Source of the DNA: Balanoglossus misakiensis
Lineage: Eukaryota > Animalia > Hemichordata
Length of the DNA: 64,000 nucleotides
Direction of reading: 5' to 3'
Assembly (NCBI GenBank): GCA_040954595.2
Contig: CM082582.2
Coordinates: forward strand, 3,952,303 to 4,016,302
Under the pieces are notes generated by a model, which made no database searches, was not told the DNA's origin, and was given only the letters and a program-made list of their open reading frames with translations. A program made the translations under genes and the position numbers. Below, piece by piece: positions 3,039 to 57,600 of the stretch (position 1 is its first letter; each line of letters starts with the position of its first letter).

Positions 3039-4303
3039 TGGGTGTCTCAAAACACATTGTGCGACAAGAAAGTGCTAGTCGCACTTTGAGGGAAATGCTA
3101 TCTGCGACCACTAGCACTTTGATTCTGCGACCACTAGCACTTTGATTCTGCGACCACTAGCACTTGCATTCTGCGACCACTAGCACTTTGATTCTGCGAC
3201 CACTAGCACTTGCATTCTACTACAAGATTTTTTATTGGTTGTGTAACTTATGTGCGCAATTAATACCCCATTGACAGTAACGAGGTGTGAACGATTCGAC
3301 AAGGCAACGTCAATGCCCGATGCTTTCCCGGCCGATCCCAAGTTCGTCACGTTGATAAGTGCGGCAGTCATTGATCGAGTTAACAAAGCAAATGCCCCGG
3401 CCGTTGCGTCGCCTTTCCGTACTGTTTGTACAAACATGCAACCACAACTGTACATGAAAAAACTAGCTGCGTATTGCTCTCAGACTAAAACATCAATGCA
3501 ATGAGAAAACGTTGATAAAACATTATTTATATAGACAGAATAAAGGAAAAAGTTTATTAACGTAAGTACTGTACTCGATCGTATCGGCATCTTTAACACG
3601 CAAAGGTCACGGGTTCATGTGGGCGCGCACAACACTTAACTGCACTCATGCTACAGAAATACACACAGTCGTTTTTCAACATAAAAATATTACCTTTATT
3701 TAGACATAAAACCGCTAAAGGCAAGTATACCGATCACGGAAGCAAGTAGTCAGATTCATCGAGCGATTCATCTGATGAGTGCAGCGCGACCTTGACCATA
3801 TTCTACGATGTCAAAGGTCAGGTCATTCAAAAATGGCGATTGTGTTGTCATCGCATCGCAAATGCGCATTTCGCGCTCGTTTAATAGCTAGTTTTACTCA
3901 GCTACAAAAATCGACAAACCAGAGTTCTTATTAAAGTCGGTGTAAAATCAGACTTGGATATGATCTAGTAGAAATGAAAGGTCAGTATTTAACCAAACGG
4001 AAATTACGTGGATCGTGTATTTTGTACATGACACGAGTACAACATATCAAGTTATCATCTTGAAAGAAAGTTGAATGTCGCGATACTTTCAAAACCCCTC
4101 GATCGATACGACTGTGCTTTTTGAAACTGGTTTTTATTCAAGCTTGTTGGTCGCAAATGATCACAGCGCACAATGCAAGTACCAGTGGTCGCAGAATCAA
4201 AGTGCTAGTGGTCGCAGAATCAAAGTGCTAGTGGTCGCAGATAGCATTTCCCTCAAAGTGCGACTAGCACTTTCTTGTCGCACAATGTGTTTTGAGACAC
4301 CCG
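3039..4303. mobile_element. Non-autonomous Tc1/mariner-like DNA transposon with long TIRs containing 23-bp tandem subrepeats
   Basis: TA at 3037-3038 and 4304-4305; near-perfect inverted repeat of over 110 bp (GGGTGTCTCAAAACACATTGTGCGAC...); 5 copies of TCTGCGACCACTAGCACTTTGAT on the left, about 3 inverted on the right; no transposase ORF. Confidence 0.88.
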
Positions 4304-6618: not shown

Positions 6619-6686
6619 AAAAATTACTTTCATCCAGCGGCAGAGAACTGAGAAGAGCTTTATTTTCCCTTAAACAAATATTCCAA
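6619..6686 (+). CDS. FHOD3: FHOD core exon, GBD/FH3 ([23 protein letters not shown])
   Basis: ttttacag acceptor, gtaagt donor, 68 nt, phase 1-0. Confidence 0.95.
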
Positions 6687-18600: not shown

Positions 18601-21600
18601 ACACAATGCAGTTAGAAACTTAAACAGCGGATTGAAAGTGATGGATGAACAAGAACCAGTACGGAACGCTACAAGGAGGAGGAGACGACAGAGGTAGGAT
18701 GTGATGGCTCAGTGTTCGGCATCAGAGCAATCTACACACTTGATGAGTGTCGAACAAAAAGTCAGCAAAATGAAAACATTGATGAGTACATTGTGCATCT
18801 ACAATGTGCATCTTAAGTTAGTTGAATAGAACACAACCCTGTATGATAAACCTCAACTCAACTGTCAATTTTGAATTTTTTTCCTAGCTGAAGAAAATTC
18901 AATCTACTGTAAAATGGGAAATTTGCAAACGATAAATTTTCGCGAAATACATAAGAGCAAAAATTACCGGAAGAATAAAAAGTCACGTAAAATGTTTTTC
19001 GGATATACATGTAACGATGCAGTGAAATACGAGAACACAGAAATTAATCCTCACATAACAGTTGCCGATGTAGATATCGCAAAAAATATCCTGTTGCGAA
19101 AATTTCCCGTTTTACAGGATATGATTTTTGGAATAATAGTTGACATGACAATGTAGACCTTGTTTTTTTGAGAGAAGTGTGTTGATCCGCCCTTTTCTTT
19201 TCTATTTTAAGAATTCTTTCAAGAAGATCACGCGCACAAGCAAATGACCATCACACGGTCTCTCTAACACTCCCTGTTTTCCTAACTGTGTTACAGAAGC
19301 AGGGCTTCTTCATCCGACCTGGAGACCTCCTTGGTCGTTTCACCAACAATCCCTCAAGCAACTATAGAAACAACAGTAACAGAAAAGCCAGTGGATCCAC
19401 CACCACCACCAAGCTCAGCAGAACGCAGAAATCCCAACATCTCAAATTTGATGGAAAGTTTCCGACAGAGGAAGGAACGGCTGCAGGCAGCTCGCAATCA
19501 AATCAGTCTGGAAGACTCACCATCATCTCGTCTCAATGGTTCCATCAGGACTCCACCTCAACAGCCTGTGCCAGTTCCTAGTAAGTGATACGTCACAGTC
19601 TTTCAGTTTTCAGATATGAGAACTTGCTCTCACTTCCAGGTTGCTACAAAATTTCCCGAGACCCAACATCCATGTTATGTATTCACAGACAAATATTGTG
19701 ATATCCATAGAAATTTCAGGTGAATGATATCCTTCAGTCTTCTCTAACGGCCACTTCAAAATCTTCAAGTTCAGTGTTTCCCATTGTGCATTTGAGTCGT
19801 TCTGTTTCGGCATACAAATGCACATTACCTTTCGCAGACTTGGCCGCCTATTAAGAAACATCGATCATGGCACCAAATTGACACAGTTGTAAAATAAAAG
19901 GTGTCAAGGTGTAGATATTATGACATGAATTGCATCAGAACCTTGACTTTGCCCTTCCATATGATTAAATCAAATGTTTGGTGTCGGGGTCTGCAAACTG
20001 CATCTTCAAAACTGTATAGTTAAGTTGTTTAGTTATTTGATATGGACACGGTGCTGACTAGATGATTTATGACAACTGAAGGTAGGTAATGTTAGGTAGC
20101 ATGACATTTACACACACTGTAGGTGTCCGTAGACTTCATATGTGAACTATCCCCTTGAGCTGTCTCCTTTTCTATCCTGTTGTAATGTATGTTATGTATC
20201 TGTTCTGTTGTACGCGTCCTGTTACTGCTTATCACACACATTGCTTTTACCAGTCTTAAATGAATTACTGTAACACCAGTCACATATAGTTACAGCTTTC
20301 CTCTGTGACTTCATTCATACACAGTACATTGGTCACAGTAAGTTCTCTGTGACACTCATGTGTCACAAATTTTGTCAATACAGTATCTGTCAGCCATCAG
20401 TGTTTATGGTTGGGTTATTGAAGTTTGTTATAACCTAACATCTCTGTCTTCGCCACAGAATATTTTCATATAAACCTCATCTGAGGAAAAATTCCTATTT
20501 GGCAAAAATGGAATTCCAAGCATTGCATATGGTTTGCCATTAACAATAGAATTCAAACTCTATTTTGTCAGCCCAACCTCTCATGCTTGTTGGCACCTGT
20601 GCTTGTGCATTTTTGTTATGGATATGACAGTTTGCCAACTTTCATGCTGTTAAGTTCAGTTAGATCTTTGGCATTCTTGTACCTGGTTCAGTGCTGACTA
20701 GATAGGAATGGCATACATGGACATGAACCTTGTATGTGTATATATTGCCATTATAATACTGAACAATGCTGACTTGTTCGCGATGTCAGTCATTTGTACT
20801 TTATTGTTTTTGACACAATGGAGGAAAGTCACACCAAGACTTCTGAATTATCCTATGCTTAATTCTTACATATAATCCCGTGATATCTGTCTTTGTTTGA
20901 CATAATCCTTTACAAATGTTTTTCGTGGAGCAGTGCAACTTCAAGCTGTAGGTTGATGACGTAGAACAGGGGTGATACTGTATGTATTTTTGATCTGTCC
21001 TGGTCTACGTCACACAGGTGGTGATATTGGGCCAGTTCATGTGATAAATTTCTGTGTTCAATACCAATGATAAAGTATTTTCCTGTTGCCATGAGCAGTC
21101 TCACATTTGCCTCTGTGTGTTGGTACAGTTAAACTTGTCTTTCACCTTTCCCCATTGTTTTACTGTGATCTGTGTATTTCCCGTTTATAATGTGATGACG
21201 TGTCTTGTGCATTTCCCTTTGATGTGATGGCGTGTCTGTTGCTGCTAGGTGTTGCTTTTGCTATCAATCATATTTCATCACACGTACCTTGCAACCATTA
21301 GATACAGATGATGACACAGTCACTGCTGAGGACGAAGCCATGTCAGTTGAACCGCAAACCACAGAAGATGTAGTTTCACCCGAAGAAGTAACGCACAGTC
21401 CTCAGCTATCAGGAAAAGGTGACTTAGAAACAGTTTTGGAACAGAAATCACACACAGCGTGTGATCCAATAGATGAAATTTCCTCTGAAGTACCACAGGA
21501 TGGAGACAGCAGCATTGTCGTGGGGAATTACAAAGCTGATAAGGATGAAACGCCATCATGTATTCGGGATGAGACTTGCAGCAGTCTGGTGGAGGAGAGT

Positions 21601-24600
21601 GTTGATGTAGTCTCGCAGTCTGTAGACCAGTCAGAAGTGAAAGGGGCTGAGGAGACCCTGGTATCTGATAGAGAAGTGGAGAGTGGGCCACGCACTGGTC
21701 TGGTGTCTGAAGATAGGTCACCATTAGATCACCAGAGAGATGAGAAAGACATGTCAGGGACAACAGAGGCTCCAGTTGATGGTTGTATTGAAGAAGCATT
21801 GTCTGCCGAGCAACCACCAGGCCTAACTTCAACTGCTGAAACTCAGCTTGAATTGGCGTCTGACCAACCATCTGATGATCAGAGTGTTGAGATCAACTTG
21901 TCAGGGACTCTAGAGATGTCACCTGCATGTGATAGTGTTGAATTAGTTTGTGAAGAGTTGCTGCAAGATGATGGGGTCTTGATAGGGATACCCACTGCTG
22001 ATGACAGTACTGTCAAAATACAGGAGATGTCAAGTTCAACACAACCAGCAGATTATGTATCACTAGATATCATGCACTCAGAGTGTCATGGTGAGAATAA
22101 TGATGAGGTGCAGACGTTGGATTCTCAAGATATTGCGGTAGAGTCCTCTGAAGGTGCTTTGGATGTTGAACAAGAATGTAAGAGTTTTGTGACAGGGGAA
22201 GGAACTGAAGGGGGTATAGTTTTAGCCAGTGGCGATGATGTCACTGGGACCAGTGGTGATGATGTCATTGAGACCAGTGGTGATGATGTCACTGGGACCT
22301 GTAAAGATGGTGTCATTGGGCCCAGTGGGGATGATGTCACTGTGACCAGTGGTGATGATGTCATTGCGACCAGTGGTGATGATGTCACTGTGACCTGTGA
22401 AGATGATGTCATTGGGACCAGTGGGGATGATGTCATTGCGAACAGTGGTGATGATGTCACTGTGACCAGTGGTGATGATGTCATTGGGACCGGTGGTGAT
22501 GATGTCACTGAAACCTGTGGTGATGATGTCACTGGAACCAGTGGTGATTATGTCACTGAAACCTGTGAAGATGATGTCACTGGAACCAGTGGCGATGATG
22601 TCACTGAGACCTGTCTTGATGTCAATGATGTCAGAAGTGGTGGTGACTTGGAGAAGTGTATTGATGAGATATCTGATAAAGATTCACCTGAAGACCTGGG
22701 AAAGCCAATGGAGCAGTCAGCTGCAATGAATGCCACAGTCTGTGAGGTGGCAGATGATGAAACAGAAACTGAACAAGAAGGCAGACATATTAAATCAGAT
22801 GTTACCATGGTTACAGACGAGTGGGATGTTAATAAAGATGGCGGTGATGATGATGTATTTGAGTGTGAGACTGGCACAGCTGATACAGGAGTAACAGATA
22901 ACAAAGATTTTAATGAAAGTGAGTAGTGTGCCAAGTAACAAAAGTGTGCAGTGAGTGTCTAAGCATTAGCTATGTAGAACTAACATAAACAGAGTTAAGT
23001 TTGAGTCTTTAGTTGTTGAAAGATTTGCCTGGAGTTGCTACTTACAGGGTTGGAGTGATTTTATTGAACTTTTAAAGGCCTGTGTAGTATTGATTTGTTT
23101 TCCAGTCAAAGCATGAAATGAAACAGAGAGTAGTACAAATCCAGTACCTCCAATGCATCTCATGCGATGCCGTCATGCATCTGGTCATCACAGGACGTCT
23201 TTTTTACTCTGTAACTAACTGTGGTGATACCTCATGTCTGGTGTTTTCTGTGTGCATTTTTATTTGCCATCTTGCATGACTAACGCATCTTTCAAGTTTA
23301 ATACAGTGAAAGCAGTCATTACAGACACCTCTCTATTAAGGACAGACTTTCTGTTCCCATAGGTGTCCTTAAAGGTATACGGTCACCAAGGGAAAATTAG
23401 CTGTAGTTACCATGGCAAATTGAGATCTAGCCAATCGCAGATTTTCAGTGGGTGGCACACGCGAAAAAAAGAGCGCCACCGTATGTTCTTTAGAACGCTC
23501 AAGTACGCCATTTCAGCCATATATGGGTACATGTATAAATATGAAAATTGGAGGTGACTGTATACCTTTAATAGACAGGTTTCACTGTACTTCATAATCT
23601 TTCAGCATGTCATTCACTTTCTTCTTCTTTTCATGGTTATTCACCTTTCCTTTATTTTATTTTGGTTACATTTCATTTCAAAGCTGATGATGAGACCTTT
23701 GATTTCTCATGGCTGTATGCTAGTACCTACTCAGATTCTATGCCCACATCATCTGAAGTAGATATAACCACTGAGAGTGAGTATTGGAATCTGACAACAA
23801 TGGTTTCTCCCATGCATGAAAAGCCAGTTTTGTAACTATGCATATCATTGTACATGAAGCATCATCAAAATTTAGCAATTCACCAACTCAAATTTATCAC
23901 TTTTGTTTCTTCAGTGCAAGAGTTGTACATTTGTAGGTTTCCTGCTCTTCTACATAATCATTGTACATACCATATGAACATATAGGTTACGGTTTTACTC
24001 CCTCAAAATTAAATGAACCATGTAGACTTTTTTGCAGTTTTGTTGTGATTATAAATTTATTTTTGTTAATTATAGTTTCCTTTATTTTCCCAGTTTGCTT
24101 TGTGTGATTCTAGCTTCAAGATCCAAAATCCAAAATTATTTCAAATCAACGGCAATAACCATTCACATTCCATTCCACACTTCTTTTGCTGATTCACAAC
24201 TGTTTGAGTTGAAGTTGCATTTTATTTTGTTTTGTTTTGCCTAGCTTTCTTTCTTTTGTTTGTTGTTTATATTGTTTTTAATTTGCCACTTTTATTTCAA
24301 AGATGACAGTTTGACATCTACAACTCCATCAAGCCTCATTGGAGACGTGCACCATGACACTACACCCCATCTTGACTCTCACCATTCAGGTATTCATAAC
24401 GCCTTTCACTTTTTCATTACATTTTCCATTTTCATCATCATCTCATAACATTTTCTATCAACCTCTGGTCTGTCCTGTCTGTGAAAATCCAAGAAATGCA
24501 TTGCTGGTAATACCTTCTTCATACTTTGTTCTTGTAGCAACTCCAGACAGACAAGTTTTTGCGAAAGATTTACGACAATATTGAGTCAATATTTTGTATT

Positions 24601-27600
24601 AAACTAAAACACTTTGGATATTTCATTGTAAAGTCAAACCTGTGTATAGTGGCCAGTCAAGGGACTCTCCTAACTGGCTTTTATAGACAGGTGGTTTTTT
24701 ATAGACAGTTCAATGAACGTTCATGTAAATTGCACAAGGACTGCAATAAAGTGGCCACTATATAGAGGTGGCCACTATCACAGGTTACATAGTTTTGCTG
24801 CATTCAACAATACATTATTGCTTTTATATTTTGAATACAAGATGAGGAAACACAGGCAATTACTGCATTAGATGATACAGATGAATTACTTATACCATCA
24901 TGGCTGCATACACAACCTGAATGTACTCTTGATAAACTTAAAGATGGCCGTCAACGTGAGTATTGTCAGCTGAGCAACCACCTCCCTAATTGACACAGGA
25001 TTTGCCGTGCAAGTGTTGTCATGACCATCAAACTAATTTCTTCCCTGAAGTTGTTCCCACTGAGTGATGTTTCCCTACATCCCTATATACCTCTCCTTTC
25101 CTTGCATTGCACTGCAGTCAAAAGTCAATACTATATACGTGTAGTATACCAGACTGCTTCCTTTATTCACACTGTCTTCTAAGAAGGCAGCATACATGCA
25201 TTATGTATTAAGCGCACAAACACAGTGAAACTGAATAAAACATATTTCCATCTCTGTATTTTTTGTGTTTCTATTAAAGACAGCACAGTGTGGGTTTTCT
25301 ATATCAGATGTACTGATGTACAGTCATATCTACTGTACATGTACCATACTTTCAAATGAGTGGGCATTGTTGCCATGATCTTTTGACTAACTACTAAAAT
25401 TGACTGCCATATGCAGTTGTTAGCATTACTGCAGGTGAAAAGTATTCAGGCAGTTTTTGATACTGCGGAGTTTGATCGTTGCATATCTGTCTTACCATTA
25501 AATGATTAAATCTTCGATTTAGGGTAAATGTTATGCATTCATTTTCAGTGTATAGCCAGTGACTGTTTGAAGCTGTAATTTGTGAAATAATCTGCAGTAT
25601 CGTAGTATGATCAGATGATAATGTACCAGTTTATTTTTTCATGGGGGGGGGGGGGGGGGTTATGAAAGGATCAAGCATTGGATGCTGGTACTTGTAGGAA
25701 TGTATGGTTTGGAGTTTGTGGGCTGACTTTCAGAGAGCAATGTACCGATAGCTCACATAGCTACACAGCTTTGTAGATCTGCATTCAATGTAAGCATAGT
25801 TTGATGTAACCTGAATACGAATACTGAATATGAAAAATCTACACTGTAAAGTGACACTATTTGAGAATGGGGTGCTGGTTCTTTGATCTTATATAAGGGG
25901 TGGAGTGCATGTTTTTTGAAACTGTATATGAATATGATGGGTGGATCTATGGAATACTTTTAGCAAGAATTTCAAGTGATATGCTGGTTGGTTGATACCG
26001 ACATTGAAACTTAGGGTGGAGTGAAGAATGCTAAAGTATGAATCTGGATATTGAGAAAACAGTGACGATATCAAGTGGTGATATCTGTTTGGAGTCAATA
26101 GATATGGTCGTACACTTGCTGTACATGGGATATTCTAGAACATGGTTTCCATCTTCAGAGGAAGAGTTGCCATTTTTGAGTTGAGAAAACTCTGACCTCC
26201 GTGTACTATTCCACTGCATTTTGTAATGTCATATGCAAACATAGTATGTTATGTCTACTTTATACAAAACACTTCCTCAATGTTCTGTGTAGTGACTTCA
26301 TTTACAGATTTAGCTTCTCATACGTGTGCGGTCAAATTGTGATCAAATTTGATTTTCACTGTGAGTGTTTGACCCAGTCTATCATTCTCATGTCTGTGGA
26401 TCAAACAAACCTTCTACATACAACTGAGGGCTGCTAGCAATTACATCATAGTCCACATTATCTTTGTTACCTCCTTGGCTCTTCAAAATCTTTTCCTACT
26501 CTTTTTGCTTTAACTACTTTCTAAATGTGTTCTTCTATACCTGTCTTCTAGTTATCTCAACAACAGTGGTTGAAGAAACGTTTGACCAAGATAACACTCA
26601 CAATGTCGCTGATGTTGTCTTTACTGCTAAACTTCCTTCAACATCACCTCCTCTGCGTAGTAAGTATCTCTCCTCTCTTCTCTTTGTTCCGTTGTCTCAT
26701 CTATTCCTATTCTCGACAGTCTGTTATCATCCCCATGGACTACCTAAATGGAATCCCCCATCCACGAATGACATGCACAACCTGGTGAATTCCATTGGCA
26801 GTAGTGGGGATGAAAGAGCGTTTTGTGTTGTTTACCCTTTTCACTCCCTGTATATAATGTCCATCTTCTGTTTTTGTTTTGAGTCAAATGTGTTCCTGCG
26901 TTGTAACCTAATCCTCTGCTGTTCTCCAATCTTTCTCTGACTCTTTCTTACTATTTCTTTCCTCAACTTGATTTCCTTTTTCCAAGGTGAAGAACCAAGC
27001 ACCTTTTCAAGCCCAGGGGACAACAATCAAGCTGCAACAGAAGGTACTAGAAATATGTGAACACCCTCGGGATTTTCTCTAACTTTTCACTTTCATTTCT
27101 TTTTTATCCTTTTATGTTCCACTCTACATTGTATTAAAGGGACAAAGTCTCTCTCTCGCTGCCCTTTTCCCATTAATTTTATTTGATACAAGACACTGTT
27201 TATATTATTCTACATCTGGATATATAGTGAATCAATGTTCAACCACACACAACTTCCATCCAACTTGTAGACACGAGAGTGAAAAAACTCGCCAAAATGA
27301 ATAATCGGTGTTTATTCATTTTGGCGAGATTTTTACTCTCATATTCTGCAAACGGGATAGAAGTTGTGTAGTCGAACGTTGATTCACTAAAAAATCGACA
27401 TGTAGAATAACATAAACGGTGTCTTTAATCAAATATAATTAATTAAAAAAATGCCTACGAGAGAGAGAGACTTTGTCCCTTTAAGTTTTAATTTTTCTCT
27501 TGCCTGCCATAATGTCAAGTATTCAGACATGACATTGATTTCACAAAATGATTCTGACACCACTGTATCACACAGAATGATCATTAATCCCCCCATCTGA

Positions 27601-30600
27601 TTATTTCATCCTACCTGACTTGCCAATTTTCAGTATTGTTTTATGCAAGAAGGCATGTCTTGGTAACACTCACTTGTACTTTCATGAGAGATTTCGTGAA
27701 GCAAACCCAATACTAACGAAATTGATATTGATGGAGAATGTTGGTACAATTTCCCCCCTTTTTAAAAACCCCCTTACTGGGAAAAAGTCTGCATGCATTG
27801 TTTTGATGCTTTTTTGTGTATTTTGTTGATTGCTTGAAAGCTGGATCTTGGCACTTCTTGTACATTGATGAAGGGGATATCAATGTGCCATATGAAGTGA
27901 ATGTCAAATTAGCCAATGACTGTTGTAGTCATAACTATATCGAGTGTGCTATGATTACAGTGTGTTCACTTGGCATGGAAACAGGAAAGATCATAGCGTG
28001 ACAGTTATAAATGTCATCATGGTACTAAACTTTGACTCTCCATTTTGTCTGGTTATTACCCGACTGATCAAACCAACAACAGCTAGGCACAGTTCACATT
28101 AACACAAGTATGTTTTAGCACACGGCTCTTTGCAGAGCATATTTGTCATAATGATAAACTTGAAAACATGTTCTTCATTTAAATGACTCATTTCAGAGTA
28201 CATTGTTCATTAAAATTTCCTTCATTACCTTTTTAATGAAACCTTTGTAATTATCATATATAAACTGAAACACAGTGAGATTGTTTTCAGCTATATTTTT
28301 TAAATTTTGAGTTGTGACTGTATGCATGTTTATCTTAAACTGGTAACTCGATCATCCATACTATATCTTAAAATTGCTGCATAAGTACCTTTAGAAAACA
28401 ATGAGAATCTTCTGTCAGACTCAGCGTGATACAAATTCTTTTTGGTAGACGTTATTGATCAGTTTCTCTGCTGCTACTTTTCTTGAAGCCAATAATAAAA
28501 TAAATGAGAAGAAATCTAAGAGTTCAGTCTCCAAAGATGACCAAGATGTCTTGCAGTTTCTTCGATTTGGAGTAACAGAATCTACACCTGAAATAAGTGA
28601 GTTCTGTTCAAAAATGGTCACTTGCACGGTGGAGACTATACAAAGTACACTTGGTGTATGAACTTCTTAACATAAATATACATAATTGTACAATGGTTGT
28701 ATTCTAAACATTTCATGTTAATCAGCCATAGGTAGATTAGGACAATATTAACTAAAACTAGAATAATGAAGTACCTGTATTAGTAATGCAAAATCATAGA
28801 TAAACCAATAAAAGCTTTGTGAACTAGATGAATGAACTAATGTACATCATAGATAAACTAACAAACCTCTATGAATGTTACAGTAAAGAGAAAATTGTAG
28901 TTCTCAGAACAAAATGGTTTTTAGAGGTGAAATAGTGTACAGCTTGATGGAGTAACTGTCAATATTATCACATTGAAAAGGAACGTTTCTGCACTATATT
29001 AGTGTTGAAGTGAAAATATGAGAAATAACATAGTTCTGTACTGGTACTCACAACCTATAATACTTTGAAGTATGCATGGTGATGATGTGAAAATTAATTG
29101 GTTTATCAGCATGAGTTGAAAAACCTTAGAAATGTGTTATAATGTAGCATGACATATAATACAGACCCCAAATCTGCATTTTGATAACAATAAAGCATTC
29201 ATAAGTTGTTATAACTTCTGAATCTGAAGGAATTTTTTCGCATATGTTTTGACATGTTACTCGATTTAAATCACAATCAAGGTTCCTCTTCAAGTTCAAC
29301 TCCGAGAAGTAATCTCACCCCGTCTGATGAAATCGTTGATCATTCCAATGTCGATGATAAGGGAGGTCATGTCCCTAGTGAGTAAATATTTCAAACATAC
29401 TTTCAGAAGTTGACTTATAACATGTTTTTTATTCTCTTCTTCATGTCATGTGCAGACACATCATGACATCATGAGACCGAACAAGTACATGTAATATAAA
29501 ACTCATTCCAGTATTTGTTATTATCTCTTCTTGCTCTATTGCATCTTTTGGTTGCTTTCAGTTGCAGCTAAAGGCTGTGGTTTTCACTTCAATTTCTGTA
29601 ACTCTGGACTTCTTGGCATCGTATCAAAACAAACCACCACTTGAGATAAACTACATGGAGTGCTACCAGAATTGATCGAAAATCCTTCATCAAAGTCTTG
29701 GTACTTGTTGCGGACTTTTTATCTCTTTCATTCCCTTGTTCTCATATCTCATCCCACTTTTTCTGTTTCTCTTCATTTCTTCTCCTTCACCTTCTGTCAC
29801 TCAAAGACCTCCGCGACATTAGTTTGGAACAAACAGGAAAGGAAATGAAAGACAGTCATTCCAGAGTAACATTAGATGATGACGTACCAAACCATGAGAA
29901 AAAAGACCTAACAATAACTGTAGTAGATGAAGACAGTAATTCACCCATGAGAAATTCACTTTCTGGAATGGCTACAAAAGACATTTCCTTGAGCAATAGA
30001 CTGAAAGACTTGCTCCCTTCTATCAGTATTGAAGATGAAGTTTTTGTTGATGATAAAAGTGAAACAGAATCTGAGGAACCTGAAAGTCGCAGGTTAAGAC
30101 TAAACTTTGTCAGTCTGAGAACAGTTACATTGAGTTCCTCAGGCAGTAGTCCTTCGACACCAACCGGTGCGCAGGAAATGCTTTTTCCCAGTGCAACAAA
30201 CACTGACCAGATCCACGCATCTTCTGATGATTGTCATACGCAAGACAAGAATACTGATGAGAGAAACTTTTCTATCAGGGAACAGTCTTATGAAAAAGAG
30301 GAGGGTTATAAAATGGATGGAAATGGATTTTCCGCACAGAAACATCCAACGGAAGACACAGATGACAGTGATGTTATGAAGCTTCTGTCCTGTGGGTTGG
30401 AGAACATTTCATCCATCGAGTCCGAAACGGCTATTCAAGATCAACCCGTATCCTCCACCACTTTGGAAGCTGAAGAAGCAGTACCTGAAAATGTTGTTAC
30501 TTTGAAATGGGAAAATAAAACCCCAGAGACTAGTTCAGATGCTAAAAAACATTCTAAAGATGAAAAGCGGATTACACCCAGAGCCAGTCGTTCAAGTCTA

Positions 30601-45600: not shown

Positions 45601-48600
45601 TCGGTCAAAACGAAAGTCTGCAACCGGTAGTCCTTCCATTTTAAGAAGCCTCAGATTATCACCATACTCATTGCCCAGTCGTTTTATATTGTGTTGTGAG
45701 TACGCGGTTTTGCACGTCCAGTTATGGCAACTGAATCCTTGCATGGTCTAAATTCTAACATTTCTGTTACAGGTCTCCGCATGAAGTCATGATTTGAAGT
45801 CTTGTTTTCCAGATATATAGCAATTGTGACATTGTCAGTCATATTTTTTAATTATAAACGTCTCTATATTCACTCTTTCAGATGATGAAAATGATCTGAT
45901 GTCATTGCTTGCTTCAGGTGATTCCCACAAATCAGCCCAAGAACAACAAAAAGGTAAGTCTTTAATATAAAATTTAGGGTTTTAAAAACCAATCATGATT
46001 TAAGATCAAAGGTAATATACGCCATTCCCAGCAGAAAGGGGTCTTATGGGAGTACAATACTTATGACCATAAGACCCCTTCCTGCTTGGGATGGCCCAAT
46101 TATATAAATTGTCGAAATTCTTCTGATTGGTCTAACAAAATATCGACCCATTTTCTTCAATATAAAAATTATCAACCAGTTTTATTTACATAATTGTATG
46201 TCATACCAATAGGAAATTTCTTCAAGTTTAAAGCTCCATTAGCTGTAACTTTACGCTGTGTTTTCAGTATTTTTGTTGTGTGTATCTACTGCAGTTTCTT
46301 TTTCAAATTCCTGATACATGATAAAGAATTGCCCAGAATTTATCTTTCCCTTTAAGACAAATCATATTCTGTTCATTACAGAAAGTTACAGTGCTAGGAT
46401 GAAGCAACAGAGGAGGAGTTATGGGAGATATGCTGACAGAGAAACAGAGATGAGACCAGTTCCTAAAGAAGGTGAGAAAAATTACCATTTGAGTGTGAGT
46501 TGTAACTTGTGCTAAGTATTAGCGTGGGAATCCAGCGACTATTTGAAATCATGCTTTTTGTGTCACTTGTGATCTGCATCGTTTCCATACTACAGCCAAA
46601 CCTGTGTTAGTGGCCACCTCTATATAGTACACACTTTGTTACAATCCCTGTGCAATCGATGTACACGTTGACTGGCCACTATAGACAGGTTTGAGAGTAT
46701 CGCAATTTTTCACATCATGATTGGCAGCAGAGCATACCTTTGTGTTTCGTTTATCCTGACTTTGTCACATTTGTTGATGGTAAAGGTTCCAGATCCCGAC
46801 AACAGAGAAGGAAAGACATATCACCAGCGGTAACAGATGATGATCCGGACAGTAAGTGTCCTCTAGGGCATTGTGACTGTTAGTTATATCACCATCTAAC
46901 ACTGTTACTTACACAGGCATGGAGTTCAAACCATTAATGTCAGTGGCATTTTGTCAACAGGTTCATATGCAGGGAAATACTAATAATTGGTTTTTGAGCT
47001 ATTTATTCTACAGTGCTTGAAATGGAGACCAGTATCTCATTCCTGTGTTAATGGCATATTAGTAAAAAATATAAAATATATTTTTGTGAATAATGCCGAT
47101 TAATACATAAAAGTTTGCAATGCACAGTATGTATAATACACCCATATTCCTTGAATCAGTGAATGCTTTGTTGACATGAGTGATTGCCCCTAGCTTGCAG
47201 CATGAACAGTAAAGGGACCTGAAAACCTTAACACATTTGTCAAACTGACAAACTTTCTTTCTTGAGCCCATATGAGTGAGCACTGCTATCGTATGTCCAA
47301 TATTACTTTTCATTAAAATGCATCCTTCATATGTAGATGCTTTTGCTTTCAACTTTCACTGTCACTTGATTTCTGATGATAACACTGGTTTTAATCCAAG
47401 TCGATGTGAGATATCGGTTATCTCTCCTATGATGCACAGTTTGTCGAAAATTACATTTTGAATGTTGTTTTTTGTGGTAGAGAAGAGTTCATGATTTGAT
47501 TTCATATCAGAATGTCACATCAAATTAACACAATGACGTTGATTTTAAGTACAGTACAATACTATGAAAATGCATAAATTCAAGATAAGAATCACAACAC
47601 AGTGCTTAAAACCATATATTGAGGGTTTGACATTTGGATTATAATCAGTGTTATATCACTTTAATTTATAGTGTGTTTCTTGTATGTGTCTGGCTTCAAA
47701 TGTTTGCCTTCTCTCTCTTGCAAAAGCTGTCACAGTTAAACTACGTCGTGTACGTAGAAGATCCCTTGAAGGAATGTCACCAGAAAGTAAGTTAGTTCAA
47801 GAATGCAATTGGTCAAGTTTTAAAGACTACTTCTATTTTTCAAACAATTTGAAAATTTAACATATTTGCATATTAAAGAGGAGAGTTTTGCATTTCTTGC
47901 CTCTTCAATAACTATTCAGGTTTGCTATTGCTCGATCTAACATGGTTACTCAGCTGTATCAAACAAACAAACAAACAAACAAACAAATAAATAAATAAAT
48001 AAACAAAGTATGCTTTGCAAATTATTTATTTTGCAGAGATGTTCAGTTTCTAGAATAATTGCATTATTGCCATGATATTATTAAACCTATTGAATGCCTA
48101 CAGTTGAAATGCTTTCATGATGAACATTAAAAAAATTGTATTATATCTAGAAAATCCTTTTCTAACATGAGCCACCCTCACATTTCCTACCCAATGATAT
48201 TAAACTAAAGAAAGGATCTCTAGACTTGATAGGAGGTGCTTGACCCTAACTCTTAGCCTTTCCCACTATCCCATAATCGAAGAGATATAGCATCTTCTCA
48301 TGTTTCATGTCATTTTGCTGTATTATGCAATAAACTGCATTTCTGGTATGCTAGGAGATGCGAGCATGAGTCAATCCAAAGCTAAAAGTGAACGCAAGTC
48401 GTCATCTGGGAAAGAGGCAACCCAGCGTAAGTAAAAAATAGTGGCTAAGTGAATGTGTACCCTTAGATGTGATGATCTCAACGTTTTTGTTGAAATTAAC
48501 TCTGGAATTTGCATGTATTTCTATTGACTGCCCACTCATCTGACAAACTATCTTTGTGTCAGTATTCTCATTAAGGTACAAACCAGAAAATCATCATCTC

Positions 48601-51600
48601 TGATGATAGAATCCATTGTCAAAAGCATGTTGTCTTGTACATTCTGACCAAACCACCAAATGCAGAATTTCGTGTAAATATTCCTACATCTAACAAATTC
48701 ATCAATGTGATTCCTCAGTTGGAAAGAAACTAAGTACATGTATTTACATTTGACGTTAACTTGTCCCTTTCAAAAACAATAAATTATAATTATAGCTTTC
48801 CTACAAAGTAGCAGCAGACTTTTGATTTGATCTGTACGAAACTCTGATTGAAATACTAGTAACCTTAGAGAAAATACTGTCACATGGTTTTATCACGTTT
48901 CCTTCTACTTGTGTCTTTCTTTCTTTCCTTCATTCTATCTTTCTCTTTATCTATCACGTTCCTTTCATGCACACTTTGCAATTGTGTGATCACTTTTCTC
49001 ACCTCTTTCTGTGCTGTGTGTGTAAACACTATCCTAGGCTACACTGAGTCTGAGAGTGCGGACAGTGAAACAGAAGTCACTGTTGTTTATACCCAAGGTG
49101 AGATCAAAGCGTTTCCAATATGTCACTCTACTCATACAAACCTGCCCATCATTCTTCTCCAAAATCCCATTGTCAATTTGTCTGGAATTATTCCCGTGTG
49201 CATGAAATTAAAACAAATTTTATGATTGTACTGTTAAACATACTGCATTGCAGTTCACAAGTAACAAAGTTCAAAAATAACTTTCTCAGTGAATTCAAGA
49301 AAACTGTGAAAGCCATTGTTGGCACTGATACTGTTCAAAATATCCCCAAATTCATATTTGACATAATTTAATCATAAAAGGAAATAAAGATATAACTAAA
49401 TACAATGTAGGTACTGTCTTTTCCAAGCTTTGTGCATGTATTAAGAACAGTTGACATAGGTAAGTGTTGTTTCAGTGGTTGATAAGTGTGTCTTCTTTCA
49501 TGTACTTATATTCTGGCCCAAAGTGTGATTTGATTCACACTGTCAGGCATCGTGGTTTCGAATAAAACCCATGAGAATATACTAGCGATTGAAAGATCTC
49601 AGAAAAGACTAGTCTATGGTATTTGCCACATGCCCAGATTGTGTGGAAATCAAGTACTTCACCTGGGCCAGTCTACATGCAGCTTGTAATCTGGTCAATT
49701 TTTAAACCTTTCCACTTTTCAACAGACAAAAGAACGCCAACAGATTACAATGCAAATGTGGCAGGTAAGTTGGGGTGCTGGCAATTCTCAAAAGCATGGC
49801 TCAAATATAAGTCTTTCCCCGATGTACGTTTGATATGGTGACGTAGAGTTACTCGGTCACAACCAGAATAACTAACTCGTGCTTGGACAATTTCTTCTCT
49901 AACCTGGGTCAAAGACAATGTATGGTACCGTGAAGTATGTTTTGCTGTCAATGATCCAAGATGGCCACCAGGCAATCATTTGTAATCAAGACTTTTTCAT
50001 GTTCAGAGCCATGACACATGCCTGAACAGATCTCATTCAAGCTTGGCATATAAGGACAATGTACTATTATGTACATATGCATGTCAATCTGTGTTTATAT
50101 GATATAAAGATCCAATATGGTGGTCTATTACAGCATGCTACCCAGCAGCCATTTTGTTGCAGTCAAGTTATCTCTCAAAACATGCTTGTTGTACACATTT
50201 GAACCTATGCGACTATCCAAGGTTTAATGTGATGTTCATGTCTGCTGTTGCAATGTTATGTTCCTTAACATGTCTAAGGGATAATGTACTACATGTATAT
50301 GTGCATGACAAATATTTGTCAATGATTGTTTTGTGACATGCTCAAATGTAGTACTAGGCTAATTAATACCTTATGAGAACAATTTTCAGAACCATGATGT
50401 CCTCCAGTTTTTATCTCACGGGGACCATGTCATTCCGACAATGACCTGTTCACTATCGCTTTGCTTTGCTCAAACGCAGGCAATGGATGGGCTTTGCATA
50501 GCCTGATCTTTACATGTAGACAAATCTGAGCATAACCAAAAGGTTCCCCTTGCTTGCTACAACTGCCATGATTAACAAACACTCACCACCATGGATGTTC
50601 CACCTGTACCTGAATAGCTGCCCAAGTCCAAGGTCATTTTTTTTTAATTTTCCTTTAGCCTGAGTCATCAGATTTGCTGAAGACGTCAGCATGATGATCT
50701 TATTTCTCATTTCATTTAAATCAGTGGCTGATTCCACCAATAACTTTACTACAGGACTGAGTTATTCTATTCTTGATGGAAACATGGCAGTCTTAAAACG
50801 TAGTTCATGTCCTAAACCCTGCCCTTAAAGTGGTGCCTTCAATACTTCCAATCCCATGGAAGTGTGGCCCACTACTAGGGAAATCATGGCAGTAACATTT
50901 CATGAATTACTCTAGTTGAATGTACCCCATCGCTTTTGCTACCTGCATCGTATCCTAGACCATGCCGACTGTCGCCGTGACAACAGGATTGCTTTCTTGT
51001 CTCTGTCAGAGCAGCGCATAACTTGCATGGCTGTTTCAACATCGGCTGTCAATCCAATGTATCCATTGCAGTGTCCTGACTGTATCTCTTCTGTCTCTGA
51101 CTGCTTTCTGTGTTTCTGCTAACATCTTTCTCTTCTTTTTCCTTCTGTGTATCTGTTATTCTGCTCACCCTCTCTTTGCTGTCTGTGTGTCTGTCTTATG
51201 TGGCTCTTCACATGAAGATGATTTAGAACCCACTGACGTGTTGTTTTACATTGACACAGCCGACTCCTATCCCGAGGATGGTAACACGCTTCCTTCACAC
51301 TCTTCTCTCATCCTTTCTTTCACTTTGTCTTTTCTCTCATTTGAAAACAAAAATCCACTGCATTGTCTGATCTGTTGTGTTATATTCTCTCTAAAGTTAA
51401 TTTTGAAGATCAATCTTCTCTGATGTCAGATGAGCAAGCCAGAAATCGCTCTTCAGGTACTTCCTCCCATTCTGCATGCAGCTAGGCTCTTGTCTTCTGT
51501 GGCATGAAGTCTCTTTTGGAATTTGGAAGCTACGTCTTTTTTGAAAATTAAAATTTTACGTTCAACTGTACTCTTGAAAATTGAATGTATTTAAAATTTT

Positions 51601-54600
51601 TCAACTCCTCATGCTACAAATTAGATTGGACACAAAGGTCTTTAGTCTTGAATAGCTTTTATAAACTTCCACCTCATCTGCCTGTATTCTCTCTCTCTTC
51701 TACAAAAGCCAAAGATCAAACCCTTGTTAAAAACAAAGGTGCCCTTCCAAATTTATGGTCGCCATCGACGCCAACAACTCACTACCCAGAAGACTGGCCA
51801 GAAGATTCCTTCGACATGCAGCTGGAACTGCAACAGAAACAACAACAGCAACTTCTTGAAGAAAACAAGATTCTGAAACAGAAAATGAAAGCTTTGACTT
51901 CGGCCCAGAAAGATCAACTGCAGTTGGTGCCCAAACAGTTACTGCAGCTGTCTCCAGAGGAACAGCTGCAGTTGGTGCCCAAGGAATTGTTGCAGTCACT
52001 TTCCGAGGACGAACTGCGCTTGCTGACCACTGGTCACTTGCAGTTGGTACCCAAGGAGATGTTGCAGGCCATCTCGGAAGACAAGTTGCAGTCGTTGTCC
52101 GAAGAAGAGATGCAGTTGGTTCCAAGGGAAGTGTTGGAGTCCATCCCCAAGGACAAACTACAGAAGACTGCAGAGTCCTCCTCTTCCAAATCCGATGTTC
52201 AGATCCCCTCGGAACTGATCTCACAGCTGCCTCCACAGATCATTGCCAAACTTCCCCCGCAGATCAAAAACAAAATAGATCCAGCGATTCTAGCCCAGCT
52301 ACCACCGCCAGAAATCTTAGAACAACTCCCGTCAACATCAGAGCTCGTCAAAGAACACATACACTTGCACTCCCAGCCAGTTCCTCCAAAGGTCAAGGGT
52401 CAACTGGACTACGACAAACTGCATTATCAAAAGCCATTGCCTCCAACACCAGAGAGTATTCCAGTGAAGTATATCTCTGATGAAAGAAGCGCCAAATATT
52501 ACAGTCCACTACCTCCCACTCCACCAAGCTCTCGGCAACACGCGCCTCTACCAGCAACTCCTGATATGTCAGCAACTGACAGTGACACTAGTGAACAACT
52601 GAACAGGCCAATCTATCAGCCGTCTGCAATGTTTGCTGCTACAGATGGGACTCCCTATCCCCAGTATCAATCACTCCAATCTGACGACACGGAGCGGACG
52701 ATACGAGGCCAATCCCCAGGCCAGTTGCCGCCGGTGATGAACTCTGGAAACACGGAACAGTCGACGCAGAACGTGGATGTCAGAGCTGTGCAGGGCCAGG
52801 TGCCTGTGGTCATGCCTGAAATCATTGTGGTCAACAGGCCCAATAGAAGATTAATTCCTGTCTCTGATGTTGAAGATGATGAAGCGGCGTCCAACCAACA
52901 AGGAGCAATTCTACCCAGAAATCTCCCCCTGCTGCCCAATACTCCAGCTCTTCTTCTACAAGGTATTTGTTGTCTTGCCAACAACGCTGCATGACCTGGG
53001 TGATGAAAAGCTACAAATAGGACTTTGTTGCATTGCAAAGTACTAACAATGCTCTCTATTCTGCTGCATGTAAATCAATAGAAGAGAGACAATCTGAATC
53101 ACCATCGTGGAGATGGTTTGTCTGTGCCAGAAACAAGTAGTGCTTTGTTTCAATTAATGCAGAAAATGAAGCCAGCATACTTGAATGCAAGAATCAAATG
53201 TATTTGTCACAGTCATACATTACAATGTAGTGTGATGCAATGTGACAAAATTTAACGTTCTACCATGCATGTGGTGCTGAGGCTGCCCACAGAATGTGAT
53301 GTACTGTGATGCATGTCCTCTTGTTGAAATGTGCCATTTTCTAATGATGCATGTGATACAAGCCAGATGAAGAAAATGTGATGTGATGCATTGTGAGAAA
53401 CTAGAGGGAGATGGCAACTTACAGTATGCAAAGAGGAAACCCCTTTCTACAGTACACATGGCAAGTTTTAAAGAAAGGACATACAATCATTAGTGCTTGG
53501 AAGAGCACTATTGGGAATATAAAAATAGCCATGTACTGTATGCATGCATGCATGGAAAGATGACAACTGCAGGCTTCATTCACTGCTTTGCATTTCGGGA
53601 AATAACTTTCATTGCACCTTGCAAGTATGTGCGAGTGGGACATATATTGAAACAATTCTCCCGCCTTCCTTCTCTCTCTCTTCTCTTTCCATCTCTGTCT
53701 CAGATCCTGAGTTAATGCAGCTTCCAAGACCTACTTTAGAAACATTACTTTATCTCTACAAAGGTACATTTTTTGTTTGTCTCATTGAATTTGTTGGCAT
53801 GTATTTGCTGTGGTGCAACTAGACTGTACAAGAATTGCCATCATGGTCAAGTGTGATCATTTTCTACAATTTGGTGTAGATAGTAGTGATGTCCATAACA
53901 GAACAAGGTAGTGAGACTTGTACATCCTTGTCCCTTGTAGAGCACCTCTCTACAGACAATACAAGCCTAATGCCCAATGAATACTCCACACCATTGAAAC
54001 TTACATGTACCTGTTCACATCTCTGAAATGAAAACTGAACAGCCTGTACAGTTTCAGTTCTGATGTAGATTCCCCCACCCTCTCCTCTCTTAGTATACAA
54101 TGTACATTGTACCTCTGCTAGCAACAGAAGATCAGTAGCCTTTATGGAACCCATCCTTTTGTTACGTACATTTCAACAGTTTGCCTGTCCATTCCAATAC
54201 TTCTACACAAAAGTACATTAGAGTACATGTGTCTTGGTTTTCTCTGGATTATGAGGATCTTTATACACTTTTCTGAAACTTAAAAATAAACTTAGTCATC
54301 CTTTAGAACAACCCCCATTCCCCATTTGTGTTTGCAACCGGCCATGTAAACATTGTATGTTGACTGATGAACTTTATGGATGGGCTTTGGATGGGTATAA
54401 TGATCAAGCTATCAAAGAATAAAAACATTACATGACTACATATTACATCAGATATGCTTTGTAAATTGATATGTGTTTTAATTTTGGCCATTAGAGTATC
54501 TGAGAGAGGAAGAATTGCCTGATTCAGAAGGTAGGTGGACTGTGGCCGTGGTCTTGCTATACTGCATTGCTGTGTACTTGCAGGATAGTCAAATAGTTAA

Positions 54601-57600
54601 TTGTGCCTGCGTTAGTACATGTAGTCATAATACATTAGAGACATTGAGAATGTCACTGACAGTAAGTATTGCACTAACAAGTCCCTTCGAATTCCTATCC
54701 AGCAGCGCAAGAGACTGATATTATTACTTCCACAGGTCATCCATTGCAATGGAATGTGCTTGTATGTCCACAAGGGACAGTGCCTTCATACACATTTTGT
54801 ATAACTAACATGACAATAAGTTTATTTTTAGGAAATGTTACAGCATGGCAACCGTATTTCACTATAGTGAAATAATGTATGATACTAAATCTTCTCCATT
54901 AAAAACAGCCATTAGAGTTGCAGCTCACAGGAATTGAATCCCTGCCAAACAAACGTCATTGCAAGTCTTTGTCTTTTTGATCCACAGCTTAATCTTCCCA
55001 GATCCCAGCATGCATTGCTTCAATCTCGCCTTCTGCACCAACCATATTCCCAGCATGCTTCATTCCAATCTTTTCTTGTCAAATTCTTCTATCTTCTCTG
55101 TGTGATTCTCTCTCTTTCTGTGTTGTTGGCTTTTCTCTTTTCTCTGATTTCACACTTCTTAGAAGAGCTAGAGGAAGAAGAAATTTCTGATATTCTCACT
55201 GAACTTGTCACCATGAAGAGTAAGTCTTTGCTCATCTCCTGGTTCTCTCATCTCTTTCGCTCGACGCACCTGCTCTCTCTCTGATACATATCACATGCTT
55301 TCTTCACCACACCTCACTATTTTAACTGTGGATTCATTTATTTTTAGTTCATGAAAACGGGGGGTACATCTACCATGTCAGTTTTTCACTCACCATCTCT
55401 CATATTTGCCGTACTTTGCAGAGTTGAACGTTGCAAGAGGACGGAATAGAAATCATTTGGAAGCACCGTCAGAGAAAGAGATTCAGAATGAAGGTGTGAA
55501 GGAGAAGGATTCATGCTCCATTTCTAGTTCCTCGTCAACCAATAGTAGTCTCCGAGATGAAGACAGGAAATCTCCATCACCTTCTTGTATATCATCTGCA
55601 TCAACTGCCTCCAGTGAGAGTACAGAGGGGTCATCATCATCATCATCATCTGGTATAAAGCAAATTTTTAAAAACTCTAGAACTTAGAAGTAACTTTTTA
55701 AAACCTTTATAAAGCAAATTTTTGAAATCTCTACAACCAAATTTTTGACAAGCGGGAACAAAAACTCTGTTTTCCTAACTGTTCCATTAGTATGCATCAG
55801 ATATTTTTGGCAATTTTGTGATAATTTTCATTTAATAGTTTGACATGCATACCTGCATCCTTTGTATGTATTAGCCAATCATTCCGTTGAGTGTCTGCAT
55901 GATGGAAGTGTAAACTGACAACAGAATGGGTGTTTTTTTTTCTCTCACTATAATAGTTGCTCCCTTTGTTATTTCAGCATTTACAAAAAGCATCAAGCCA
56001 TCTAGTGGAATGCAAGATCCCAGGAGACGACCCATCATGGAGACTGACTTGGAAGCACAGCTTGATAGACCAGACACGAAAGAAACAGAACAAGAAAGTC
56101 GTGCTGATGACTCAGAGGGCCAGTTATTATCCAACGACAAAAGACTATTCTTTTCAATGATGGGTGGTTCTAAGACGAAAAGTCAGGATGAAGATGAGAC
56201 AGAGCCCTCGAAAGAAGCTAGACCACTTCCCACAAGGAGGATTTCTCAGTGCCTGTCGGCTACAGACACCCTGGGGGATAGGATCGACAGCTTACAGAGC
56301 AGTTCTGCCGAAGTTACACGAACGGTTCAAGATAATTTAGACAATACCGGTGCAGTTGTGTCTGCGCACGAGAGATTGACTCAATCAAGCGGCGATGAGA
56401 GTAGTGCCAAGGGACCTGTTGGACCCACAGGGGACAAAAGTGGTGTTATTGGACAAGCAATGGAGGGACTTCAAAGTTCATCCAAGCCATCGGTTAGTAG
56501 TGCGGCCGAGCCAAGCAAGGCCGCTGCACCCGTTCAACCGAAGAGAGAGGTGGACGAACGCTGGGAACAGCTGATGAAATCTACAAATAGAGCACTGAAA
56601 ATTAAAGACCTGGATTTCACCGATCTTGCTCCCTCGGACGACGAGGATATTCTCGAACCCAAAGTAACGGCTGTTGAAGCTAACTTTGTGGGAATCCCCC
56701 CGCCCCCGCCCCCTCCCCCACCTTTGGGTGGCCCCCCTCCTCCCCCAATGCCTCCGCCGTTGTTTGGCATTCCCCCTCCCCCGCCGTTATTCGGACAGAC
56801 CACCATAGACGGAAGGGCACCACCACCCGGAATGCCACCCCCGCCCGGAATGGGACGAGGACCATCTGAAGGCACCCTCAAGAAATCCAAAAAGACACTC
56901 AGACTGTTCTGGAAGGAAGTCAGAAACAACGACTCCTTCGTGCCTCAGAAGGGTTCTAAAAAGACAATATGGAGCTCGTTAGATCCTGTCGATTTGGATA
57001 CCTCCAAACTTGAACATCTGTTTGAATCTAGAACCAAAGAACTTTCGTTTAAGGTGAGTGTTTTACAAACTCTCAGAATGTACTCCAGTCAAACCTGTGT
57101 TAGTGGTCACCTCTATATAGCAGCCACTTTGTTACAGTTCCTGTGCAATGTGCATGTGTAATAACTAACTTGTATATAAAGGCCATCTCTCTATAAAGTC
57201 AGTTTATTCTTAGTTATTTGGATGTGTTCCACTATCAGTGTATATGAGACTCTGTTTCTGGAAATACAAATCGATAGGATTGCCAGTAGAGAATGGCAGG
57301 TCATATGATAAATTGTGATGTACATTTGTTGACTGCGAAATTTTTATGATTCAAGTGTGAAGGTAGTGACAGTTTTCGTCAATGGAAAGATCACGTTTCA
57401 GGTGTTCGGAATTTGAAATTTAAAACAAATTGGCTAAAATTGACTCACGAACCTGAGTCACTACCTTAACAACATCTAGTGCGCGCAAACTTTGTACTCA
57501 AAATGTAGCTAATTTTGTCAGATGAATATTGAACTAGACGTACGTACGACGTAGGCTGAAAGGAGTTTGATGGAATTTTTGTTATGAATGTGTCAAAAAT

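Follow-up and report, generated by a model that had tools for sequence, protein, structure and literature searches.

Is the base at position -3 of a 3′ splice site, usually treated as a small modifier of its strength, able to mark exons for regulated use? The question is raised by a 64,000-nucleotide (nt) stretch of the acorn worm Balanoglossus misakiensis, an enteropneust hemichordate close to Ptychodera flava (contig CM082582.2, positions 3,952,303 to 4,016,302; hereafter the window, in whose coordinates all positions are given). Here the gene of a formin, an actin-assembly protein, carries a long array of candidate cassette exons, and most of them follow the rare acceptor AAG. On balance we favor the reading that AAG is a selected, weak-but-usable acceptor and that these exons are included only where the splicing activators of a particular tissue, probably muscle, are present.

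Judged by its sequence, the window holds a single gene on the + strand, which is an FHOD-family formin. Its closest proteins are those of Ptychodera flava, Glandiceps and Saccoglossus. The 17 core exons, spliced without any cassette, give an open FH3-FH1-FH2 frame with the FHOD domain order (FH3_FHOD1-3, FH1, FH2) that matches P. flava XP_0705740xx exon by exon. In Pfam, an exon of the window matched FH2, and the P. flava orthologue matched FH3_FHOD1-3 and Formin_GBD_N in addition to FH2. P. flava could be aligned exon by exon over the whole window (67% at the FH1 exon), and a search of proteins of 626-2000 residues gave Glandiceps talaboti as the top match of the FH1 exon (54%). Between FH3 and FH1 (19580-55422) lie 47 cassette candidates: 46 hand-curated phase 1-1 exons of 30 to 3987 nt (sum 9762 nt) and exon 27841, whose donor is unclear. 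With all 46 included the frame remains stop-free over 4468 residues inside the window, and the full array would add up to about 3250 low-complexity residues to the formin.

The cassettes and the core exons use different acceptors. Among the 47 cassettes we counted 31 AAG, 10 TAG, 6 CAG and no GAG (30 of 46 AAG if exon 27841 is left out), whereas the core acceptors comprised 14 CAG, 3 TAG and no AAG (AAG in 31/47 versus 0/17; Fisher p = 1.0e-6). The original prediction had put the AAG cassettes at 28 of 47, a count that our recount raises, and the excess it described lies far beyond chance; it was also right that all core exons use CAG or TAG, although it listed 16 of them. The four acceptors it quoted were found in place, ahead of exon starts 23684, 26987, 29807 and 51709. 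In animals AAG usually makes up a few percent of acceptors, and the 17 core exons bound its frequency below about 16%, for the core exons of this gene alone. At intronic AGs that are not acceptors, A precedes in 31-34% across six filter settings, whatever the tract filter, and the share in the array exceeds this background of ~32% (binomial p = 1.9e-6). An AAG share above the neutral rate together with the absence of GAG indicates selection on the -3 base. By block (Table 1), the share is 10/13 in A, 17/24 in B and 4/10 in C.

Are the AAG sites the ones that are used? We aligned spliced junction peptides to the RefSeq protein models of the relatives, a comparison that stands in for RNA reads; such models draw on RNA-seq. 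This was possible for 34 of the 47 exons (23 AAG, 6 TAG and 5 CAG), with in-frame AGs from -75 to +45 considered as rivals. The AAG start scored highest in all 23 AAG exons (16 in ungapped and 7 in gapped alignments), 12 of which had an in-frame CAG or TAG rival, 3 only AAG or GAG rivals and 8 no rival. Since AAG won in 12 of 12 exons with a CAG or TAG rival, use of nearby CAG or TAG acceptors in its place is rejected for these 12. Homology moved one TAG exon to 44088 from 44067, where the acceptor is also TAG. The eight AAG candidates outside this set include 51709, which aligns with Glandiceps from residue 1; the other seven have no orthologous support.

A blind scan based on donor score, pyrimidine tract and open frame returned 27 phase-1 candidates in the array, 24 of them on the curated list and 18 with AAG; outside the array it returned 2 on the + strand and 7 on the whole - strand, with one AAG each. 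The scan and the junction alignments together rule out ascertainment as the source of the AAG excess. That the candidates are not random hits, as originally argued from their shared signal, is borne out by the RefSeq models of three other hemichordates, in which orthologous peptides meet at these exon boundaries. Against a null of 60 shuffles, 11 candidates lacked homology support (21302, 23684, 24303, 24842, 28537, 36872, 41084, 48355, 49038, 51218 and 51397), the matches of 28537 being to a repeated motif only. Two P. flava exons, of 18 residues (between 42567 and 43719) and 22 residues (between 27043 and 27841), had no identified counterpart, the introns not having been searched specifically for them.

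The sequence around the cassette splice sites also differs from that of the core. AG-free zones were longer in cassettes (median 51 nt versus 38 nt, p = 0.013), as were pyrimidine tracts (p = 0.008). Unusually long tracts had been ascribed to the AAG acceptors; they belong to the array as a whole, as AAG and YAG (CAG or TAG) cassettes are alike in tract and AG-free zone (p = 0.25 and p = 0.89). No other AG lies within 20 nt upstream at 30 of 31 AAG sites. T at -5 was found in 18/47 cassettes versus 14/17 core exons (p = 0.004), and A at -9 to -4 was slightly more frequent in cassettes (0.24 versus 0.20). Branch-point distance, taken from a simple YTRAY pattern, was similar in AAG and core exons (medians 38 and 36.5). 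Donors had G at -1 in 18/46 cassettes versus 12/16 core exons (p = 0.02), and in 8/30 AAG exons versus 10/16 YAG cassettes (p = 0.03); GTRAG(T/C) was present at 27 of the 28 cassette donors without this G. Upstream, UCUU/UCUCU occurred 3.1 times per 100 nt in cassettes versus 1.0 in core introns (p = 0.002). In the downstream window (+7 to +200), GCATG ranked fourth and CTAAC sixth among all 5-mers, and every other rank down to the sixth was taken by a pyrimidine-only 5-mer. GCATG was found 31 times versus 8.8 in dinucleotide shuffles and CTAAC 16 times versus 6.1, counts that none of 300 shuffles reached; CTAAC enrichment was strand-specific, and GCATG density was 3.9 per kilobase (kb) versus 1.65 in deep intron. 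With either motif counted per exon, cassettes differed from the core at p = 0.048.

In the relatives the cassettes are alternatively spliced, as isoform models differ. We compared 20 models, including 15 of the 41 P. flava isoforms; such models can be incomplete. In P. flava, block C (47727-55219) was absent from all 15 isoforms, most of A and B was included, and ten exons varied singly (27841, 38614, 40106, 41513, 42048, 43719, 44372, 44688, 45070 and 46786). Block A, largely included in P. flava models, was skipped in Glandiceps X1 and X3: X1 included much of B and C, X3 kept C largely with a little of B, and a separate Glandiceps model carried block A material. Two Saccoglossus models differed in 35011/35184 and in part of block C. 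These block-wise and single-exon differences argue against one switch, and separate tuning of blocks and of single exons is likely. The original prediction had the array skipped by default and switched on as one group by a trans-acting factor. What holds is that the exons are alternatively spliced and have candidate regulator motifs in common; a single group under a single factor is not supported as stated, since sub-blocks and single exons vary and 0 of 20 models skip the whole array. That skipping is the default state is something we infer.

How could a weak acceptor serve such exons? Skipping in most cells would result from the combination of weak donors, poor contact of U2AF35 with AAG and PTB-like binding to the UC tracts. 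In activating cells, Rbfox (at GCAUG) and a QKI/STAR protein (at CUAAC) would act from the downstream intron, and the spliceosome would then assemble on the long tract and take the first AG that it meets, the AG-free zone leaving AAG without a competitor. Acceptors follow the order CAG > TAG > AAG > GAG (PMC2018619; PMC11802449), so AAG as the weakest acceptor still usable would explain both the excess of A and the lack of GAG. The added residues would target or tether the formin, as do the heart-specific exons of mammalian Fhod3.

Several observations weigh against this account. Per exon, the contrast with the core is weak for GCATG (22/46 cassettes versus 3/16, p = 0.07) and for CTAAC (15/46 versus 3/16, p = 0.36); the full TGCATG is enriched just 1.8-fold (p = 0.02); CATGC, the reverse complement of GCATG, also shows a mild excess, its count being reached in 14 of 300 shuffles; and there is no downstream excess of UG-rich CELF motifs (TGTGT at 2.65 versus a background of 3.15 per kb). 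FHOD biology and the motifs point to muscle as the probable tissue, and neurons are another site of Rbfox and PTB action. No model skips the whole array, and a search of proteins of 626-2000 residues did not find a short P. flava isoform. Protein alignments fix the start of an exon and not the base at -3 in the relatives. Ordinary human cassette exons have C or T at -3 (PMC4317169), so weakness by design alone does not predict 66% AAG, and the strength of the preference for A is the main puzzle for the mechanism.

That puzzle could be solved if A at -3 were a positive address, read by a tissue-specific U2AF small subunit (a paralogue, an isoform or a modified state) or a second-step factor that prefers AAG and turns the exons on. 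AAG would then mark a tissue-specific class of acceptor, and in hemichordates, perhaps in other deuterostomes too, the -3 base would be part of a tissue splicing code. AAG at twice the neutral rate agrees with this, as do shared neighbors: A or C at -4 in 25/31 AAG sites, and G at +1 in 16/31 AAG exons versus 3/16 YAG cassettes (p = 0.06). There is also a precedent in an ATR exon whose switch by S34Y U2AF1 requires its -3 A (PMC4317169), but S34Y is a cancer mutant. We regard such an address as unlikely, because scattered among the AAG exons are 16 YAG cassettes that have tracts and motifs in common with them, and only 4 of the 10 exons in block C have AAG. The simpler idea that AAG is lineage-wide or neutral, with long-tract acceptors needing no -3 pyrimidine and drifting freely and AAG common among the alternative exons of the species, gains some room from the core exons, whose bound comes from this gene only. 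Free drift predicts ~32% A and ~10-17% G, however, and with 66% A and no G observed we give it little credence.

An equally poor prospect, in our estimate, is that the array belongs to a neural program (of eMIC/Srrm234 type or under neural PTB/Rbfox) and not to muscle, which would leave the logic of AAG unchanged. Microexons in the eMIC/SRRM4 sense are 27 nt or less; the cassettes here range from 30 nt upward, with three of them longer than 1 kb, although 11 of 46 are 51 nt or shorter. TGC was not enriched over the coarse window from -150 to -4 (16.6 versus 15.7 per kb). Fly eMIC exons do combine weak donors with UCUC-rich tracts and long AG-free zones (PMC8797185), but downstream CTAAC is a muscle-type motif (PMC1950531) and muscle is where the long FHOD forms of mouse and fly act (PMC3324543; PMC5061545). 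Least credible of all is an excess without present function, inherited from a single founder exon through repeated duplication or from AAG/GT proto-splice sites. The pair 41348/41513 shares 84% over 25 nt, but blastn of 46 exons and their flanks against one another found four short matches only, three of them in tracts, and the cassette peptides are mutually unrelated, so that descent by duplication is largely rejected. Several peptides are moreover conserved out to Saccoglossus, which is time enough for an unselected base to drift. An exon start with GT in 8/31 AAG exons versus 0/16 YAG cassettes (p = 0.04) would fit proto-splice sites, but 3/17 core exons start with GT as well. The resulting AAG/GT at eight acceptors (e.g. 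26986, 34326, 40429, 41347 and 45291), five of them AAG/GTGA, is donor-like, and these could possibly act as decoy U1 sites or in recursive splicing.

Table 1. Core and cassette exons of the FHOD-family formin gene, in window coordinates. Start backed, exon start supported by junction alignment; gapped, by a gapped alignment.
Feature	Position	Strand	Acceptor	Remarks
Eight 5′ core exons, FH3 region	6619..19580	+	7 CAG, 1 TAG	starts 6619, 9498, 14652, 15281, 16413, 17732, 18461, 19297
Block A, 13 exons	21302..35309	+	10 AAG, 2 TAG, 1 CAG
1617-nt acidic exon	21302..22918	+	TAG	no orthologous match
Cassette	23684..23776	+	AAG	no homology support
Cassette	24303..24389	+	AAG	no homology support
Cassette	24842..24955	+	AAG	no homology support
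Cassette	26552..26659	+	TAG	start backed
Cassette	26987..27043	+	AAG	start backed
Cassette	27841..27957 (end approximate)	+	AAG	start backed; clear phase-1 donor absent
Candidate cassette	28537..28596	+	AAG	poor tract, AGs upstream; other AAG start at 28489
Cassette	29282..29377	+	AAG	start backed (gapped)
Giant acidic exon, 3987 nt	29807..33793	+	AAG	AG-free zone 109 nt; 53% identity to P. flava
Cassette	34327..34380	+	AAG	outscores in-frame CAGs at +12 and +15
Cassette	35011..35061	+	AAG	AG-free zone 145 nt; start backed
Cassette	35184..35309	+	CAG	conserved hydrophobic stretch jointly with 35011
Block B, 24 exons	35813..46851	+	17 AAG, 4 TAG, 3 CAG
Cassette	35813..35890	+	AAG	start backed
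Candidate cassette	36872..37009	+	TAG	no homology support
Cassette	37729..37788	+	AAG	start backed (gapped)
Cassette, 30 nt	38220..38249	+	CAG	NAGNAG with distal AAG
Cassette	38614..38667	+	AAG	orthologue left out of 2/15 P. flava isoforms
Cassette	39932..39988	+	AAG	outscores in-frame TAG at +9
Cassette	40106..40165	+	AAG	orthologue left out of 2/15 P. flava isoforms
Cassette	40430..40510	+	AAG	P. flava peptide identical; also in Glandiceps, Saccoglossus
Weak candidate	41084..41122	+	AAG	poor donor; no homology support
Cassette	41348..41389	+	AAG	start backed
Cassette	41513..41560	+	AAG	3′ end like 41348, possible duplicate
Cassette	41696..41746	+	AAG	start backed
Cassette	41862..41924	+	AAG	outscores in-frame CAG upstream at -39
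Cassette	42048..42101	+	TAG	CAG-TAG tandem
Cassette	42493..42567	+	AAG	start backed
Cassette	43719..43763	+	TAG	start backed
Cassette	44088..44138	+	TAG	by homology; further in-frame AGs at 44064, 44067, 44085
Cassette	44372..44452	+	AAG	start backed
Cassette	44688..44747	+	AAG	orthologue in just 1/15 P. flava isoforms
Cassette	45070..45180	+	AAG	start backed (gapped)
Cassette	45292..45336	+	AAG	outscores in-frame CAG at +15
Cassette	45882..45953	+	CAG
Cassette	46382..46471	+	CAG
Cassette	46786..46851	+	AAG	start backed (gapped)
Block C, 10 exons	47727..55219	+	4 AAG, 4 TAG, 2 CAG
Cassette	47727..47786	+	AAG	outscores in-frame CAG at +9
Candidate cassette	48355..48426	+	TAG	homology not significant
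Candidate cassette	49038..49097	+	TAG	AG-free zone 165 nt; homology not significant
Cassette	49726..49764	+	CAG	Glandiceps match
Candidate cassette	51218..51280	+	AAG	AG-free zone 144 nt; no homology support
Candidate cassette	51397..51456	+	AAG	AG-free zone 118 nt; no homology support
Cassette, 1254 nt	51709..52962	+	AAG	aligns with Glandiceps from first residue
Cassette	53704..53763	+	CAG
Cassette	54495..54530	+	TAG
Cassette	55163..55219	+	TAG
Nine 3′ core exons: FH1, FH2, start of DAD region	55422..64000	+	7 CAG, 2 TAG	starts 55422, 55978, 59438, 60031, 60702, 61367, 62480, 63246, 63927

Some cassettes encode features of their own. The protein is most hydrophobic over a stretch from the adjacent exons 35011-35061 and 35184-35309 (Kyte-Doolittle mean over 19 residues of 1.54 in the window, 1.82 in P. 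flava, 1.95 in Saccoglossus and 2.31 in Glandiceps). This stretch is missing from one Saccoglossus model and may be a spliced-in membrane anchor for the formin. The most conserved cassette is 40430-40510: P. flava has 26 of its residues unchanged, and the peptide is clearly preserved in Glandiceps and Saccoglossus. It is likely a binding motif, and Pfam gave no match at its orthologue in the P. flava protein. The giant exon matches P. flava, Glandiceps and Saccoglossus kowalevskii only. A motif, acidic-(V/I)(M/L)x(F/L)LxxG, in many cases with basic residues after it, recurs in it and is also found in 28537 and 45882; the giant exon and P. flava have 7 copies each, Saccoglossus 9 and Glandiceps 5. 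It loosely resembles the C-terminal DAD segment of the gene itself (DEMMELL and a basic stretch), and a role as decoy DAD or in actin binding is our guess. Pfam detected no domain in the three large cassettes, and the 1617-nt exon contains a coding 24-nt tandem repeat (16 copies, 22226-22611). Exon 27841 (27841-27960) shares its start and peptide with P. flava and has no good phase-1 donor at the expected end, possibly as a degenerating exon or through an assembly indel. In the introns, 23-nt tandem units in opposite orientation at 3101-3218 and 4177-4241 and a GC-rich stretch at 11250-11680, palindromic by eye, are probably remnants of non-autonomous transposons.

With 31 AAG and 16 YAG cassettes in one gene, the locus offers a dense and testable set for asking whether AAG is a brake or an address. 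The locus further suggests that hemichordates use the PTB/Rbfox/QKI exon code of vertebrate muscle, and that their FHOD formins form giant modular isoforms of 3000-4500 residues. Full-text searches of mostly open-access literature, main texts only, found no description of an AAG-majority cassette array or of hemichordate FHOD splicing. PMC9984181 and bioRxiv 2024.09.17.613571 do not mention AAG, and PMC1557818 gave no -3 frequency. None of five FHOD-like metagenome loci was usable for the array; the one with 10 kb of upstream sequence is a bird-like FHOD3, and its 38-nt AAG...GT stretch, whose peptide is in none of the compared proteins, was rejected as evidence.

By analogy, the features of the array resemble the PTB/Rbfox/QKI code of vertebrate muscle exons. 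Muscle-enriched cassette exons of vertebrates have UCUU/CUCUCU upstream and GCAUG and CUAAC downstream; the array has the first two in excess, and for CUAAC an excess over shuffles that is weak per exon against the core. Unlike them, the array lacks UG-rich CELF enrichment downstream and gathers ~47 exons in one gene, and AAG is not mentioned in that study (PMC1950531). Long AG-free zones and A at -3 to -9 characterize the human exons that depletion of U2AF35 activates (PMC4402522). The array is like them in its lengthened AG-free zones and tracts, in A at -3 and in having less U close to the AG (at -5), but there the pattern is a statistical trend over scattered exons whereas here AAG is the majority in one gene, and A is only slightly enriched at -9 to -4. 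Drosophila eMIC-dependent neural exons, which U2af38 represses, are similar in their long AG-free zones, UC-rich tracts and weak donors; the array exons are larger, UGC enrichment was not detected in our coarse window, and that report has no mention of AAG (PMC8797185). Exons with distant branch points have AG-free zones of 100 nt or more (PMC1431707), a length of at least 100 nt being reached in just 8 of 46 cassettes. Relatives of the cassette sequences were not found outside hemichordates, and among 1.84 billion representatives the sole match of a 216-residue P. flava cassette stretch was a Saccoglossus protein. Functional parallels come from the same gene family, where muscle-specific extra sequence without known domains sets sarcomere localization. 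Mouse Fhod3 exons 11-12 are heart-specific and required for sarcomere localization (PMC3324543), and the long Drosophila Fhos isoforms required in flight muscle arise from alternative promoters that add an N-terminal extension (PMC5061545). Instead of two exons or alternative promoters, the B. misakiensis gene has ~47 internal cassettes that encode up to about 3250 residues.

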